64,000 nt of DNA, from positions 19,562 to 83,561 of the forward strand of contig QZJM01000020.1 in the NCBI GenBank assembly GCA_003605065.1. The letters are read 5' to 3'. Source of the DNA: Dethiobacter sp. GTDB lineage: Bacteria; Bacillota; Dethiobacteria; DTU022; UBA8154. How positions within the stretch are numbered: the first letter of the stretch is position 1; each line of letters opens with the position of its first letter. Below the pieces are notes generated by a model. That model was given only the letters and a program-made list of their open reading frames with translations, did no database searches and was not told the origin of the DNA. Shown here piece by piece: positions 335-60,155 of this stretch. Made by a program: the position numbers and the translations under genes.

Positions 335-460
335 AATTCAACTTTCAAGACCTGCACCACCTGGGTTCATGGAGCATAACACCTAAATTCAATTTTCAAG
401 ACCTGACACCATCTGGACCTAACACCTAAATTCAATTTTCAAGACCTGACACCATCTGGA
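335..460. repeat. tandem direct repeat: two perfect 40-bp units (378-417 and 421-460) of AACACCTAAATTCAATTTTCAAGACCTGACACCATCTGGA, plus a degenerate upstream copy (335-364)
   Basis: Seen directly in the sequence. The units are joined by a CCT linker and followed by GGGG and a T-run. Confidence 0.85.
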
Positions 461-550: not shown

Positions 551-796
551 ATGTCTTGCCCGGTCTGCAAGAGTATTAACACGGGTAAAGTAGGCCACAA
601 TGCGTACTACTGTGCCGATTGTCTCCTGGAATTTACGGAAAACGACGGAGAAATAGCAATATATTATATCGATGCCGAAGGATCTTCTTATGCCCTGAGG
701 GATAAAGATGCCGCCGCCATACTGGTGAAGTCCATCCGTGAGGGCAATGATTTGCTGTTACAGGAAAGTATAGAAGAGCTGATTATAAAAAGCTAA
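551..796 (+). CDS. small zinc-ribbon protein (CPVC...CADC), hypothetical
   Basis: 81-aa ORF preceded by a GGAAGGAG RBS 12 nt upstream. It has two CxxC pairs. I could not assign a family. Confidence 0.5.
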   Translation: MSCPVCKSINTGKVGHNAYYCADCLLEFTENDGEIAIYYIDAEGSSYALRDKDAAAILVKSIREGNDLLLQESIEELIIKS

Positions 797-7878: not shown

Positions 7879-9552
7879 ATGCAGAGATTAAGACGGCAGC
7901 AGAGAGTGTTATACGCAGCGCTCTTTTTTTCTATGATGATCGGACTGCTCCTGATCCGGCTTGGCCATATCCAGCTTTTCAGAAGCAGCAGGCTGGCCGC
8001 GGAAGCGGTGAGACAGCGGGCACAGGCCGTTATTCTCAACTACAACCGCGGCGATGTGCTGGACCGCAGCGGTATTTCCCTCCTCGGGGGCAAAGAGGAG
8101 AAAGTCCTGGTAGTGTTTCCGGCCCTGATGGCCAAAGGTGATGCCGAGGCTGTGGAGATAGTATCCCATTTTATTCCCCAGGCAGCCATGCCCGGAACCC
8201 CTTTTATCGCCCTGCGCGGTGTGGAACCCCATGAAGAGGAGCTCTTTAAAAACTTAGTCATCCCGGGCCTGGTGGTAACGGAAGCTCGGAGGCGTTACGG
8301 GGCCGATGCCCTGGCCACCCATGTTACGGGCCACACCGGGGCCTCCGACGGCGAGGGAAAAGTGGGTCTGGAACTGGTTTTCAACCGTGAGCTTAAAGGG
8401 GCCTCCCCGACCATGCTGGCCGCCGTTATCGACGGGAAAAAAAACCTCATCGGGGGCCTGGGTTACCGGCTCTGGGAGAGCAGGGAACAGCACCAGCCCT
8501 ATGACCTTGTCCTTACCATCGATTACAACATCCAGCAAAAAGTCGAAGAGATCATGGATTCCCGGGTGGCCAGGGGGGCGGTGGTGGTCATGGATCCCCA
8601 CAATGGTGATATCCTGGCTATGGCCAGCAGGCCCAACTACCTGCAGGCCCGCCTTCCCCTCTACCTTAGCGGCGGGGAGGAATATAAGGATTATTTAAGC
8701 GCCCAGCCCTTTATCAACCGCAGTATCTTAAGCTACCCTCCCGGTTCCGTCTTCAAGATCGTTGTTGCCGCAGCCGCCCTGGATACGGGAAAAGCCTGGC
8801 TGAGCCAAAAATATTACTGCCCCGGTTTTATACAGGTGGGGGATAAAACCTTCAGCTGCCAGCACGGCCCCCACGGGGAGGTGACCCTGGCCCAGGCCTT
8901 TGCTCACTCCTGCAACTCCGTTTTTATTGAGCTGGCCCTGAGCCTGGGGAAGGAAACAATCTACCGGTATGCCACGGCCATGGGGCTGGGAATGGAAACA
9001 GGCCTGCCCCTGGGCAGCGCAGCGCAGGGAGGGGAGGTAAAAGGGATGGTACCTCTGCCTGAAGAAATCCTATTTCTGGGGGATCTGGCCCTGGCGGCAA
9101 TCGGACAGGGTCGGGTAGAGGCCACCCCCCTGCAGGTAGCCCGCCTTACCGCAGTGGCAGCCAATGGCGGCTACCTGGTGGAACCGCGGCTGGTGAAAGC
9201 CCTGCAGTCCAGGCAGGGACTGCAGGTAAAAAGGTTTCCTCCCGGGACCAGGAAGAAGATCTTAAGCCCGGTTACCGTGAGCAAGCTGCGCTATATGATG
9301 TTGGGTGTAGTGGAATATGGAACGGGCCAAGCGGCTTTCAGCAGGGTGCTGCTCCTGGGAGGTAAAACAGGGACAGCGCAGACCAGCAGGTTTTTAAACG
9401 GAAAACCCCGGACCTATTCCTGGTTTACGGGGTGTGTCCCGCTGGAAGAGAGCAGGGCCGTTATCACCGTTTTTGTGGAAGAACCCCTGCAGGGAAACGC
9501 TGCCGAAACTTTTAAACATCTGGCCCAGGCTATATATCCCTTTCTTATTTGA
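7879..9552 (+). CDS. class B penicillin-binding protein (peptidoglycan D,D-transpeptidase, FtsI/SpoVD family)
   Basis: N-terminal TM segment. Motifs SVFK (SxxK), SCN and KTGTA are present. Confidence 0.85.
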   Translation: MQRLRRQQRVLYAALFFSMMIGLLLIRLGHIQLFRSSRLAAEAVRQRAQAVILNYNRGDVLDRSGISLLGGKEEKVLVVFPALMAKGDAEAVEIVSHFIPQAAMPGTPFIALRGVEPHEEELFKNLVIPGLVVTEARRRYGADALATHVTGHTGASDGEGKVGLELVFNRELKGASPTMLAAVIDGKKNLIGGLGYRLWESREQHQPYDLVLTIDYNIQQKVEEIMDSRVARGAVVVMDPHNGDILAMASRPNYLQARLPLYLSGGEEYKDYLSAQPFINRSILSYPPGSVFKIVVAAAALDTGKAWLSQKYYCPGFIQVGDKTFSCQHGPHGEVTLAQAFAHSCNSVFIELALSLGKETIYRYATAMGLGMETGLPLGSAAQGGEVKGMVPLPEEILFLGDLALAAIGQGRVEATPLQVARLTAVAANGGYLVEPRLVKALQSRQGLQVKRFPPGTRKKILSPVTVSKLRYMMLGVVEYGTGQAAFSRVLLLGGKTGTAQTSRFLNGKPRTYSWFTGCVPLEESRAVITVFVEEPLQGNAAETFKHLAQAIYPFLI

Positions 9553-52095: not shown

Positions 52096-52602
52096 ATGGA
52101 AGATCTTAATACCAGGATGGGTTACTTGAGGGGCTTGGCTGAAGGGCTGGGGATAAACGATGATACCAGGGAAGGAAAAATTATCAACCAGATAATTTCT
52201 GTACTTGATGATATCGTGGATTCCGTGGAAACTATGAAAGAAGATTACGACGAACTGTTTTCTTATGTGGAAGCCATTGATGAAGATCTGACCGATCTGG
52301 AGAACGACTTCGAAGACGCTGAAGACGCTGAAGATGATGAAGATGATGAAGATGATGAAGATGACTTCGACGATGAAGAGGATGAGGATGAAGACGAGGA
52401 TGACGGGGATTACGATGTAAGTTTTACGGTGGAATGCCCGGAATGCCGCCAGGAAGTGATTATCGACGAAGATATCCTGGAGGACGAGGAGTCCCTGGAG
52501 GTGCTCTGCCCCAACTGTGGGAGGGTAGTCTTTATAAATGACGAAGAGTGGGAAGAAGAGCTTGAAGGAACAGAGAAGGAAGATGATAAAGAGGGTGAAT
52601 AA
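52096..52602 (+). CDS. highly acidic protein with a C-terminal CxxC...CxxC zinc ribbon (position of B. subtilis YqhV)
   Basis: Contains the D/E run DAEDAEDDEDDEDDEDDFDDEEDEDEDEDD followed by CPECRQEV...CPNCGRV. Confidence 0.55.
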   Translation: MEDLNTRMGYLRGLAEGLGINDDTREGKIINQIISVLDDIVDSVETMKEDYDELFSYVEAIDEDLTDLENDFEDAEDAEDDEDDEDDEDDFDDEEDEDEDEDDGDYDVSFTVECPECRQEVIIDEDILEDEESLEVLCPNCGRVVFINDEEWEEELEGTEKEDDKEGE

Positions 52603-57573: not shown

Positions 57574-58104
57574 ATGAACAGGAAAACAGTGTGGTTTCTC
57601 AGTATATTTTTAGTGGCAGTCGTTACTTATTTTTTTGTAGGCGGTCTGGAAAAAGAGATGAGCCGGATTGAAATAGCCCCGGACGAAGAGATATTCCGGC
57701 CCATCCTTTCCGGAGATTTATCCGATGATCCTGCCAAATGGCAATTTGACGATGCTCATGCTTTTTTTGTAGAGTATCGCCTGGAAAGGGATCGGGTCCG
57801 GGGGCAGGAAGTGGAGATGCTCAACGAAATGATCAATAATCCCCAGGTGGGGGCAGAAGCGCGGAATGAGGCAGAGAAGCAGCTTTTAAATTTAGTTGAT
57901 CTTATGGAAAAAGAACTGATCATCGAGAACATGTTAAAAGCGCAGGGGTATAATGATGCCCTGTTATTTGCCCGCAAAGGGGTGGCCACGGTAATGATCC
58001 ATGCAGAGCAGCTGAGTGAGGGGGATTTTATAAGGATAACCGAGATGGTATCTGCCATTTCAGGGGTTTCCAGGGAGCAGGTCCAGATAATCCAGCACAA
58101 ATAA
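57574..58104 (+). CDS. spoIIIAH: stage III sporulation protein AH
   Basis: MNRKTVWFLSIFLVAVVTYFFV N-terminus with a TM anchor and a C-terminal YscJ/FliF-like domain. Confidence 0.8.
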   Translation: MNRKTVWFLSIFLVAVVTYFFVGGLEKEMSRIEIAPDEEIFRPILSGDLSDDPAKWQFDDAHAFFVEYRLERDRVRGQEVEMLNEMINNPQVGAEARNEAEKQLLNLVDLMEKELIIENMLKAQGYNDALLFARKGVATVMIHAEQLSEGDFIRITEMVSAISGVSREQVQIIQHK

Positions 58105-58230
58105 AATTGAAATTTTTATTAAAAAATAAATTGTTGGGAATAAAAAAATTGAAACAGCACAGCAAAATCTGATATAATTGGATTATGTTATAAAGTATGT
58201 TAATTTTATTATACATAAGGAGGAAAAGGT

Positions 58231-58617
58231 ATGGGTGAAGGACGTAACCTTCCTTCGGAACTGGGTGTGGTTCGTATTGCTGACGAGGTTGTTTCCATTA
58301 TTTCCGGCCTGGCAGCTACGGAGGTTGACGGTGTGGCCAGCATGAGTGGAGGTATCGCCGGGGGTATTGCCGAGGCTCTGGGACGTAAAAACTTATCCAA
58401 GGGAGTAAAAGTGGAAGTAGGTGAAGAAGAGGCCGCCGTGGATTTATACTTAATAGTTCGCTATGGTTCGCGCATACCCGATGTGGCCTGGGCGGTCCAG
58501 GAGAATGTAAAAAAAGCCATTGAGAATATGACCGGCTTAAATGTTGTGCGGGTGAATGTTCATGTGCAGGGAGTCAGTTTCCCGCAGCAAAAAACAGAAG
58601 AAGAAGGAATTAAATAG
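58231..58617 (+). CDS. Asp23/Gls24-family alkaline shock protein (YqhY-like)
   Basis: GVVRIADEVVSIISGLAATEVDGVASMSGG matches the Asp23 family. AAGGAGG RBS. Confidence 0.85.
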   Translation: MGEGRNLPSELGVVRIADEVVSIISGLAATEVDGVASMSGGIAGGIAEALGRKNLSKGVKVEVGEEEAAVDLYLIVRYGSRIPDVAWAVQENVKKAIENMTGLNVVRVNVHVQGVSFPQQKTEEEGIK

Positions 58618-58623
58618 CAATGC

Positions 58624-58887
58624 TTAAGCTAACCTTCTGATTCGGGGACATTCCCCGACACCTCTTAGGTAAGGGGACACACCTCTTTAGGTAAGGGGAC
58701 ACACAGAGGAATGTCCCCATGGAATGTCCCCATGGAATGTCCCCATACACCTTAAGGGGACATTCCCCGATGCTTTAACAGGGATGTGTCCCCATACACC
58801 TTAAGGGGACATTCCCCGACGCTTTAACAGGGGTGTGTCCCCATACCTTATAACAGGGGTGTGTCCCCATACCTTAAAGGTTAGCTT
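58624..58887. repeat. complex mosaic repeat element built from GGGGACA/TGTCCCC heptamers in both orientations, with sub-repeats (3 x 13 bp, 2 x 24 bp, 2 x 49 bp, 2 x 28 bp), bounded by 11-bp perfect inverted repeats AAGCTAACCTT (58626-58636) and AAGGTTAGCTT (58877-58887)
   Basis: Seen directly in the sequence. It lies in the asp23-amaP intergenic region. Confidence 0.85.
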
Positions 58888-58915
58888 TGCTTTATTTGAA
58901 AGGAGATTAGTTTCT

Positions 58916-59455
58916 ATGGGAACGGGAAAACGTATCATACTGGTTGTCCTCGGATTACTTGCCCTCTTAGGCGGTCTGGTTTTAATATTTGCCACACTGG
59001 GAGTTCTCGACGGAACGGCTCTTTATAACTTGTTTCGATATACCGGAGATTTGCGTTATACCGCTCTGGGCTTCCTGATCCTGCTCGCAGGAGTTATCTT
59101 GCTGGCCTTCTCCACGCAGGGCGGGAAAAAGAAAGAGGGCGGTACTATTGTCAGCTTTACGGAAATCGGGGAGATTCGCATTTCTTTTAAGGCAATCGAA
59201 AATATGGTTTTGACTGCCTCCCGTAAAATTAAAGGTATCAGGGAAGTAAACACGCGTATTGATTTTATTGAACAGGGGCTGGTTATCTACATGCGTATAA
59301 AAGTTATTCCTGATGTGGCCATTCCCGGTCTGGTTAGTGAACTGCAGGGAAAGGTTCGGGAATATGTTCAAGAGATCAGCGGGGCAAGTGTGGCCGAGAT
59401 AAAAGTCCTGGTAGAAAATATTGCCCAGGAAAAAATAGAAAAGAATGTTCGTTAA
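58916..59455 (+). CDS. amaP: alkaline shock response membrane anchor protein AmaP
   Basis: MGTGKRIILVVLGLLALLGGLVLIF plus a second TM segment. It is a conserved partner of Asp23. AAAGGAGA RBS. The track ORF begins at 58835 inside the repeat element. Confidence 0.75.
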   Translation: MGTGKRIILVVLGLLALLGGLVLIFATLGVLDGTALYNLFRYTGDLRYTALGFLILLAGVILLAFSTQGGKKKEGGTIVSFTEIGEIRISFKAIENMVLTASRKIKGIREVNTRIDFIEQGLVIYMRIKVIPDVAIPGLVSELQGKVREYVQEISGASVAEIKVLVENIAQEKIEKNVR

Positions 59456-59469
59456 GGGTGTGAAGAGCA

Positions 59470-59694
59470 ATGGATGATCATATTTTAAAATTTTTAAATG
59501 AAAATTTCGGTAAAATTGTGGGCGGTTTTCTGGGGCTGCTTATAGCGCTGATTATTGTTATCTTTGGCTTTTGGAAAGGTATATTTATAATTTTTTGTAT
59601 CCTGGTGGGAATTTTTATTGGTGCCAAAGTAGAAAAGCACGAAGGTCTGCGTAATTTTCTAGACAGGTTCCGGTTTTCGCGGGAGCGTTTTTAA
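59470..59694 (+). CDS. DUF2273 small integral membrane protein
   Basis: 74 aa with two TM segments (GFLGLLIALIIVIFGFWKGIFIIFCILVGIFIGA). Commonly found with asp23 and amaP. Confidence 0.7.
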   Translation: MDDHILKFLNENFGKIVGGFLGLLIALIIVIFGFWKGIFIIFCILVGIFIGAKVEKHEGLRNFLDRFRFSRERF

Positions 59695-59756: not shown

Positions 59757-60155
59757 TTGAAAAGAAGGTTGTCCAGGGAATGTGCTTTTAAGGCTCTTTT
59801 TATGATTGATCTAGGCAATAACAACCAGGAAGGCGCCTTAAATTATGTTTTAAGAGATGCCGGCCTTTCTGAGAAGGAGCAGTTGTATTGTGTTAACCTG
59901 GTAAAAGGGGTCTTGGGCAAAAAGAAGGAGCTTGATGAAATCCTGTCAGGCTACCTCGTTAACTGGCAATTTGACCGCCTGGCGGTAACGATACGCAATA
60001 TACTGCGACTGGCACTTTATGAAATGCTCTATCACGATGATGTTCCCCCCCCTGTTTCCATTAACGAAGCCATAGAAATGGCCAAGGTATACCAGGATAG
60101 TGAGGCATCGCGTTTTGTTAACGGTATTTTGGACAAGATCAGGAAAAGCACTTAA
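59757..60155 (+). CDS. nusB: transcription antitermination factor NusB
   Basis: MKRRLSRECAFKALFMIDL... aligns across the full length of NusB. TTG start with a GGAAGGAG RBS. Confidence 0.9.
   Translation: MKRRLSRECAFKALFMIDLGNNNQEGALNYVLRDAGLSEKEQLYCVNLVKGVLGKKKELDEILSGYLVNWQFDRLAVTIRNILRLALYEMLYHDDVPPPVSINEAIEMAKVYQDSEASRFVNGILDKIRKST

Follow-up and report, generated by a model that had tools for sequence, protein, structure and literature searches.

The block of nested palindromes lying between asp23 and amaP in the 64-kb window (the window being the whole stretch of Dethiobacter sp. DNA analyzed here, 64,000 nucleotides) is most probably a conserved intercistronic RNA hairpin of the terminator/attenuator type that has been expanded in situ by slippage and template switching. 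What is new here is best filed as a conserved hairpin between two cistrons that is uncatalogued and whose quasi-palindromic expansion is exceptional and lineage-specific. The evidence comes from the anatomy of the block, from the homologous spacers of about 20 related lineages and from the closest relative, in which a putative intermediate state of the expansion can be found.

With both strands counted, the 64-kb window contains 21 copies of the heptamer GGGGACA or its complement TGTCCCC, against a mean of 9.96 and a maximum of 18 in shuffled sequence. Eleven of these 21 copies fall, in both orientations, within the 225 bp of 58644-58868, while the remaining 10 are scattered at chance level. 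The start-to-start steps between the clustered heptamers (29, 22, 17, 13, 13, 18, 31, 18, 31, and 26 nt) are irregular and follow no helical phase. Larger repeats are nested in the same interval, namely a perfect 13-nt tandem of three GGAATGTCCCCAT (58708-58746), two copies of TTAGGTAAGGGGACACAC at 58665-58682 and 58687-58704, which form the core of 22-nt units, a 49-nt unit present twice with 96% identity (58738-58835; TRF period 49, score 204), and a perfect 26-nt tandem of two TAACAGGGGTGTGTCCCCATACCTTA (58825-58876; TRF period 26, 100% matches), of which a diverged third copy is found at 58776. The self-complementary GGGGACATTCCCC occurs three times, at 58644, 58756, and 58805. The whole is bounded by AAGCTAACCTT (58626-58636) and AAGGTTAGCTT (58877-58887), which form a perfect 11-nt inverted repeat, and the 5-nt direct repeat TGCTT can be read from the sequence outside both arms, at 58621-58625 and 58888-58892. 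The initial annotation of the block (58624-58887), made by reading the sequence, had described 11 heptamers, nested sub-repeats and perfect 11-bp inverted repeats at the ends; the heptamer count and the repeat finders agree with it, except that the true 26-nt unit TAACAGGGGTGTGTCCCCATACCTTA is slightly unlike the version then given. It had also been right in setting aside a CRISPR array, as the repeats are heterogeneous (13, 22, 26, and 49 nt), lie in both orientations and abut one another without unique spacers. The block folds far below shuffles on the + strand (about -137 to -139 kcal/mol, z = -8.8), with a slightly better fold on the - strand (about -145 to -146 kcal/mol, z = -8.4), and it is the sole nested inverted-repeat cluster of the 64-kb window.

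Regarding the transcription unit (Table 1), the gene order spoIIIAF/AG/AH-asp23-amaP-DUF2273-nusB is constant among the fetched relatives. No strong promoter-like site other than the sigma-70-like sequence upstream of asp23 precedes asp23-amaP; the + strand scanned from 58178 to 59564 contains no promoter-like site, and thus none between the hairpin and amaP. A gap of 8 nt separates the asp23 stop codon (TAG, 58615-58617) from the basal stem, and the spacer from this stop to the amaP ATG amounts to 298 nt. The amaP start at 58916, already proposed in the initial annotation, is confirmed by the match of the product to NCBIfam NF033218 (84.4 bits, cut-off 55) and by its 100% identity to RJX28028.1, the 179-aa AmaP of a Dethiobacter sp. 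MAG. Since the 179-aa AmaP starting there matches both, the 206-aa GTG open reading frame at 58835-59455 is an over-extension, while the one at 58801-58995 on the - strand shares sequence with both the array and the start of amaP; both are artefacts, as had been suspected, and the block is indeed without coding capacity.

Table 1. Features of the asp23-amaP region, with coordinates of the window.
Feature	Coordinates	Strand	Basis or remark
Sigma-70-like promoter (TTGAAA, 18-nt spacer, TG, TATAAT)	58149..58178	+	11/12 hexamer matches, extended -10 TG
asp23, Asp23/YqhY-type, 128 aa	58231..58617	+	Pfam PF03780
Basal stem 5' arm AAGCTAACCTT, initially the left "TIR"	58626..58636	+	Homologous to GCTAACCTCCTG, 20 lineages, covariation
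Mini-hairpin hp1 copy a, GGGGACATTCCCC	58644..58656	+	Putative ancestral copy; present in L010 too
Inverted-copy block, 2 x 22-nt (TTAGGTAAGGGGACACAC core) and first of 3 x 13-nt GGAATGTCCCCAT	58660..58737	+	TRF periods 22 and 13
Two direct 49-nt copies of putative ancestral hp1 - GAYGCTTTAACA - hp2	58738..58835	+	Map to plus strand of L010 spacer
26-nt tandem duplication TAACAGGGGTGTGTCCCCATACCTTA, hp2 unit	58825..58876	+	TRF; one unit absent in L001
Basal stem 3' arm AAGGTTAGCTT, initially the right "TIR"	58877..58887	+	Inverted repeat, covariation
T-rich tail TGCTTTATTTG, terminator-like U-tract directly 3' of stem	58888..58898	+	Read from sequence
amaP ribosome binding site GAAAGGAG	58898..58905	+	10 nt before ATG 58916; kept in alignment of relatives
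amaP, 179 aa, membrane anchor for Asp23	58916..59455	+	NCBIfam NF033218
DUF2273 small membrane protein, third gene of cluster	59470..59694	+	PF10031

The loci of AmaP relatives were obtained from exact-protein look-ups and one metagenome scan, and the asp23-amaP spacer was extracted from each of them. About 20 distinct Dethiobacteria-like lineages, in which AmaP is 47-85% identical, harbor the same stem between asp23 and amaP. In its simple form, the spacer of the relatives is 65-83 nt long and consists of GCTAACCTCCTG, a loop of 6-18 nt, CAGGAGGTTAGC and a T-rich tail, with GAAAGGAG about 10 nt further; the stem consensus is GCUAACCUCCUG / CAGGAGGUUAGC, with 12-15 bp. Around 18 of the stem-bearing lineages are devoid of any heptamer, the only heptamers in relatives being those of two hairpins in lineage L010. 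When the stems of the 20 lineages are aligned, the window and L010 spacers having first been stripped of their interior, pairing holds in 96.7% of the cells of the 12-pair helix, versus 30-58% once the partner is displaced by 1-3 columns. Double changes are found in five stem pairs, and none of 500 shuffles reaches the observed percentage paired or the covariation score. RNAalifold, run independently, returns the same helix, here of 15 pairs, and finds compensatory changes in eight. The stem pair table, as counted from the RNAalifold output, contains 38 G·U versus 7 A·C cells, and folding of the simple hairpins is usually more favorable on the + strand (e.g., -32.4 kcal/mol for L029 versus -21.4 kcal/mol on the - strand), which indicates that the stem is selected in the sense RNA and not as a DNA palindrome. 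The "terminal inverted repeats" are identified in this way as the basal stem of a resident hairpin.

A comparison of the asp23-amaP region in relatives had been proposed in the initial annotation, where a single-copy sequence conserved at this position with covariation was to be taken as the mark of a leader RNA, as opposed to a MITE. This is nearly what is found: the basal stem is kept at the site and covaries, whereas the heptamer array is lineage-specific. The structured RNA of the asp23-amaP operon that had been offered as a second choice thus holds in so far as the RNA is structured and belongs to this operon, but it is an intercistronic hairpin and neither a 5' leader nor a free-standing sRNA. 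In addition, the stem sequence is conserved beyond what pairing requires, which hints at an extra constraint, e.g., a protein or an alternative pairing with the Shine-Dalgarno (SD) sequence. The window and 15 related loci have no Rfam match at gathering threshold, and E-values up to 10 bring only chance-level matches in 58100-59400, all well below gathering scores. The conserved basal hairpin, uncatalogued in Rfam, can be regarded as a candidate cis-element for the control of expression within the Asp23/AmaP/DUF2273 cluster, which is widespread.

The interior of the block can be compared with that of L010, the closest relative (AmaP 85% identical, flanks with 86% nucleotide identity). The L010 spacer, 116 nt long, shares both arms and both junctions, left and right, with the window, and between the arms it contains only two mini-hairpins, hp1 (GGGGACATTCCCC) and hp2 (GGGGTGTGTCCCC). 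Read from the sequence, hp1 is identical to the reverse complement of hp2 at 11 of 13 positions, and in the predicted fold of L010 they pair with each other, forming a second tier atop the basal stem. The window corresponds to the L010 state with about 161 nt added between two copies of GGGGACATTCCCCGAC (58644-58659 and 58805-58820) and with a 26-nt tandem duplication. These 161 nt (58660-58820) are covered to 88% by 12-mers of the L010 spacer, at most one mismatch being allowed, versus 0.6% in shuffles. The 12-mers are inverted over 58667-58737 and direct from 58738 onward; the modules of 58660-58737 are reverse complements of hp2 and hp1, with 12-mers that match the L010 spacer on its minus strand, and the right-hand modules recur as an inverted copy in the left third of the array. 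Judging from these matches, the block is free of foreign DNA and is made of the locus's own hairpin, duplicated in both orientations.

From the same comparison we infer an order of events and a mutational mechanism for the duplications. The top of the hairpin would first have been extended by two mutually complementary G4-N5-C4 mini-hairpins, a state kept in L010, and growth to the 298-nt spacer would then have proceeded by at least one inverted duplication (fold-back, template-switch) and several tandem ones (slippage). Slippage would account for the tandem 13-, 22-, 26-, and 49-nt units and intrastrand template switching for the inverted block, the end product being a 240-nt nested quasi-palindrome whose base would still be closed by the ancestral stem, where the loop formerly had about 15 bases. 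That RNA hairpin stems can be created and extended by template switching has been documented (PMC8794818), and quasipalindromes are mutational hotspots in bacteria (PMC7202029). Further intermediate states were sought in the close relatives P0036, P0055, P0026, P0067, and P0003, in which only contig-truncated, simple-hairpin or other-type spacers were found. In a MAFFT alignment of L010 with the simple hairpins, the extra 37 nt are placed as one insertion after CCTTCTG; alternatively, TTTA(A/T)CAGGGG in the array could plausibly correspond to the ancestral junction between the loop and the 3' arm.

Variation of the spacer can be followed down to the level of strains. L001, 99.9% identical to the window over 5.1 kb, has one 26-nt unit fewer and one A more, and the unit number is still changing among near-identical strains. 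The sister lineages L015, L016, L020, L053, and L054 (AmaP 77-79%) have a different long hairpin, made of GGAAGTTGG/CCAACTTCC repeats, the unit number of which varies too, and spacers of 118-168 nt of other sequence again are found in L017, L018, and L051. On the basis of these alignments, the spacer is a remodelling hotspot in the clade around the window, the more distant lineages retaining the simple form. The heptamer array is found in the window lineage and, as two hairpins, in one other (L010) only. Because the stability of the array shows no strand bias and near-identical strains vary, the expansion is probably recent and neutral or mildly modulatory. A small ORF in the 75-nt loop of a sister lineage was also considered and rejected, its frame, compared by eye, not being conserved across L015, L016, and L053.

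As the source is a metagenome-assembled genome, the nested repeats could have been created or mis-counted by the metagenome assembler, all the more so as another assembly breaks in the array and the central 83 nt (58734-58816) come from a single one. Such an artefact is nonetheless very unlikely, since about 110 nt of the left end of the array are exact in an independent assembly of another run (the Logan assembly of SRR22388160, in which L002 exactly matches 58617-58733), and the right end (about 45 nt) is matched there with a variant by L001. The two-module core is moreover seen independently in L010, and unique sequence flanks the block on both sides inside a long contig. Short-read assemblies break inside the block, which we infer to be caused by internal repeats longer than the word length of the assembler; this word length is k = 31 for the Logan assembly. 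These breaks can also be counted in favor of the MITE or REP/BIME-type element, inserted between asp23 and amaP, that the initial annotation had preferred, together with the perfect 11-nt inverted repeat at the ends, the TGCTT beside both arms, which resembles a target-site duplication, and the palindromic, REP-like modules. Insertion of such an element has become highly improbable. The arms, with compensatory changes in about 18 heptamer-free lineages, belong to the site and not to an insert, and the interior is built from the locus's own sequence. The apparent target-site duplication is not kept in L010, where the flanks read TGTTG on the left versus TGCTT on the right, and the right-hand TGCTT belongs to the conserved T-rich tail. 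Neither the 64-kb window nor the Dethiobacteria-type loci contain another copy outside this spacer. Elsewhere in the window, searches with 1-3 mismatches find the modules only at this locus, apart from chance-level scatter; with at most one mismatch, GGGGACATTCCCC occurs in the 64-kb window only at the asp23-amaP locus, and GGGGTGTGTCCCC has one further one-mismatch match, at 9429, with no other array parts around it. Over the other loci that were fetched, about 197 kb in total, the modules are found only at the homologous spacers, in addition to isolated hp1 palindromes in seven scan-retrieved loci. Among 185,579 species-representative genomes, which do not include the source genome, the exact 18-mer TAAGGGGACATTCCCCGA occurs as seven isolated palindromes without any array; these seven matches are at chance level and come from unrelated taxa (Desulfovibrio, Faecousia, Aminicenantes, and one intergenic site of Syntrophomonadaceae). 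In viral contigs, two exact array strings gave zero matches each, the exact strings in both searches being drawn from parts of the element. The block is single-copy in all sequence available.

A resident hairpin expanded in place leads to the question of its role. The form of an intrinsic terminator is recognizable, with a conserved stem of 12-15 bp and a T-rich tail on the sense strand after asp23, the 240-nt loop of the window being atypical. Across lineages, 8-20 nt lie between the stop codon of asp23 and the stem. If the stem is prolonged for as long as pairing continues, 12 of 20 lineages show at least five T in the 8 nt behind it; with a fixed 12-bp core the number is about 16 of 20 (a count made by hand and not computed by a tool), the background being 5.7% of all 8-mers of the window. 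In the distant relative L047, an unrelated canonical hairpin with a T-run stands at the same place. The U-tract is interrupted in the window (TTTGCTTTATTT) and poor in 4-8 of the 20 lineages, and, given the 240-nt loop, a standard terminator finder does not call the window hairpin. In the L015-type long hairpin the T-run is absent altogether, so that a pure terminator role is not universal and a role in processing or stability, or none, is possible.

The chances are about even that the hairpin acts as a partial terminator of transcription from asp23 into amaP-DUF2273, as a protection of the asp23 3' end, or as both. In the model predicted from its form, the hairpin would be a leaky intrinsic terminator and a 3'-end stabilizer, both activities being deduced from sequence features. 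Transcription from the single promoter at 58149-58178 would then yield more asp23 message than amaP/DUF2273 message, and Asp23 would be in excess over its anchor protein. In the window, where the basal stem has to close around 240 nt, pairing is long range and termination should, if anything, be weakened.

It can also be hypothesized that the expansion itself is a functional, selected regulatory RNA, whether as an RNase III/processing platform, as a pH- or temperature-responsive fold, or as a translational switch in which the anti-SD-like, pyrimidine-rich 5' arm would pair in turn with the SD-like 3' arm and with the true SD of amaP. The very stable fold is consistent with this, as is the conservation of the stem sequence beyond pairing needs. 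The 5' arm consensus GCUAACCUCCU, which resembles the 3' end of 16S rRNA, contains CCUCC, the 3' arm is SD-like, and complementarity of the 5' arm extends to the region of the amaP RBS (GGAGAUUAG) in three cases, the window, L010 and L021. The lineage is moreover of the alkaliphile type and the operon is the alkaline-shock cluster. However, selection of the expansion for such a function is unlikely, as the array is present in one other lineage only and differs in unit number between 99.9% identical strains, with a stability that is without strand bias. Exact GGAGG is found in the 3' arm of only 8 of 20 lineages, with GGCAGG in two, the complementarity to the RBS beyond the SD is limited to the closest clade, and Rfam gives no match. 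A more elaborate proposal, rather a long shot, is that of an undescribed cis-RNA of Dethiobacteria whose 5' arm would mimic the 16S 3' end and whose 3' arm would serve as a decoy SD; in some lineages it would be a hypermutable rheostat, where gain and loss of units would tune read-through or processing and, through it, the ratio Asp23:AmaP(:NusB). At the level of DNA, the 11 heptamer copies found in 225 bp in both orientations could form an array of GGGGACA binding sites for a transcription factor or nucleoid protein regulating amaP. This is scarcely credible, given that their spacing is irregular and out of helical phase, that the heptamers are by-products of duplicated 13-49 nt units and are absent from relatives save for the two hairpins of L010, that amaP has no promoter-like site of its own, and that G·U wobble in the conserved part points to RNA and not to duplex DNA.

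A BoxA-like sequence is also found in the array. The BoxA consensus of gamma-proteobacteria is GYTCTTTAANA (PMC5725501), and ACGCTTTAACA, which occurs twice via the 49-nt duplication, matches it at 9 of 11 positions, although this consensus is gamma-proteobacterial and may not be that of Dethiobacteria. The counterpart of ACGCTTTAACA in L010 is GCTTTATCA, and the other lineages are without it. An autoregulation by BoxA/NusB, with GCTTTAACA in the array and nusB three genes downstream, was considered and rejected, the motif not being conserved and an 8-mer being expected by chance.

The terminator/attenuator-type hairpin expanded in situ can be set against several known systems. Like intrinsic or partial terminators within operons, the block has a stem-loop after a stop codon, a U-rich tract, the next RBS close by and no separate promoter. 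Unlike usual terminators, its stem sequence is conserved over wide divergence, its U-tract is interrupted, and its loop is made of 240 nt of nested hairpins versus 3-8 nt. Enterobacterial REP/BIME, such as the malE-malF intergenic REPs, stabilize the upstream mRNA and can establish differential expression in an operon; REPs are present in hundreds of dispersed copies and are often linked to a RAYT transposase. Similarly to REP/BIME, the block is an intercistronic cluster of imperfect palindromes in alternating orientation, and by analogy a role as 3' stabilizer may plausibly be alike. In contrast to them, it is confined to a single locus, with modules derived from its own hairpin and no other copies found. 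The pneumococcal BOX and RUP and the Neisseria Correia elements are multi-copy, show insertion polymorphism and have TIRs that are part of the element. The block resembles them by its intergenic mosaic of short modules, variable unit number, TIRs and strong predicted RNA fold, but its "TIRs" pre-exist in module-free lineages. The likeness to quasipalindrome or template-switch products is that nearby sequence is copied as its reverse complement and that hairpin stems are made or lengthened (PMC8794818; PMC7202029). The products described so far mostly stem from one event involving a few to tens of bases, whereas in the block such events are repeated, together with tandem duplications, up to 240 nt within one bacterial hairpin.

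With regard to annotation, perfect "TIRs", an apparent target-site duplication and mosaic palindromes offered a tempting label, which is corrected here to a resident hairpin grown in place; it was the comparative data, and not the anatomy of the block, that settled the question of mobile versus resident. The locus provides a clear natural series of hairpin growth, from a 12-bp hairpin through a two-tier hairpin to a 240-nt nested rod, with unit-number polymorphism ongoing, while the arguments for a lengthening of hairpins by slippage and template switching have so far relied mostly on small events. Any effect of the expansion on read-through would make it a new route to the heritable tuning of operon polarity. 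Should the rheostat hold true, it would amount to a mechanism resembling that of contingency loci which acts via terminator geometry and not via a coding or promoter repeat.

The asp23-amaP spacer of the sister lineage (AmaP 77-79%) takes the form of a long hairpin unlike that of the window: it measures 158-170 nt and is composed of GGAAGTTGG and CCAACTTCC repeats flanking a conserved loop of ~75 nt. One additional CAACTT unit is found in the hairpin of L054, one of four loci of this lineage listed below. The sister-lineage hairpin has no T-run on its 3' side, and CTAACCTT is located immediately 5' of the RBS in the spacer. A short ORF with an ATG start can be found inside the conserved loop; as read by eye, its frame is not conserved.

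Coordinates of hairpins, contig portions and short repeats
Feature	Locus	Coordinates	Source
Sister-lineage long hairpin	L015	1838-2000	
Sister-lineage long hairpin	L016	556-721	
Sister-lineage long hairpin	L053	1111-1268	
Sister-lineage long hairpin	L054	329-498	
Contig portion ending within the array	L001	1-45	Logan SRR22388160
Contig portion ending within the array	L002	3487-3602	Logan SRR22388160
~43-nt unit, two perfect tandem copies	window	377-460	
~43-nt unit, one diverged copy	window	~330-372	

Within the array, the nested heptamer-repeat block of the window, ACGCTTTAACA (58819-58829 and 58770-58780) agrees at 9 of 11 positions, CTTTAA core included, with the gamma-proteobacterial BoxA consensus GYTCTTTAANA (PMC5725501). 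The gene nusB (59757-60155) lies three genes downstream of this match. The match is not kept in relatives, the closest of which (L010) carries GCTTTATCA there.

Regarding other repeats, a lone GTAAGGGGACATTCCCCGATAGG palindrome occurs at positions 53-70 of L009, a locus from the exact 18-mer genome scan (Syntrophomonadaceae MAG JAQUXM010000105.1), where it is intergenic and upstream of an ORF that we take, by eye, to resemble a PAAR/DUF4280-type gene. Of the seven scan matches, no other was seen to be intergenic and from a related order, and the palindrome in L009 is probably due to chance. Elsewhere in the window, a ~43-nt unit, AATTCAAyTTTCAAGACCTG(A)CACCAyCTGG, is present in three copies (330-460) within the intergenic region 302-550. 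Close by on the 3' side of the copies come a T-run, a promoter-like stretch rich in AT, and ORF 551-796(+); the copies could form a regulator-binding array or be a further product of slippage. Tandem repeats of 9 nt and 27 nt (GAAGATGAT and similar) succeed one another at 52312-52417; this run would, if coding, give an acidic Asp/Glu-rich stretch, and is probably an ordinary low-complexity region.

In a 99.9% identical strain assembled from short reads (Logan SRR22388160), the array is interrupted by contig ends on both sides, and many AmaP homologues in the database are carried on contigs of ~1 kb. Since short-read contigs end within the array, the spacer is likely absent from, or truncated in, many public assemblies at similar loci.

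With regard to the basal stem that closes the array, the conserved 5' arm (58626-58636 in the window; consensus GCUAACCUCCU) is similar to the 3' terminus of 16S rRNA. The 3' arm (58877-58887 in the window), AGGAGGUUAGC, forms a strong SD-like sequence. In the window, L010 and L021, the 5' arm has a second complement in the amaP RBS region, GGAGAUUAG (58898-58910 in the window), and this complementarity suggests that an alternative pairing of the arm may be possible.
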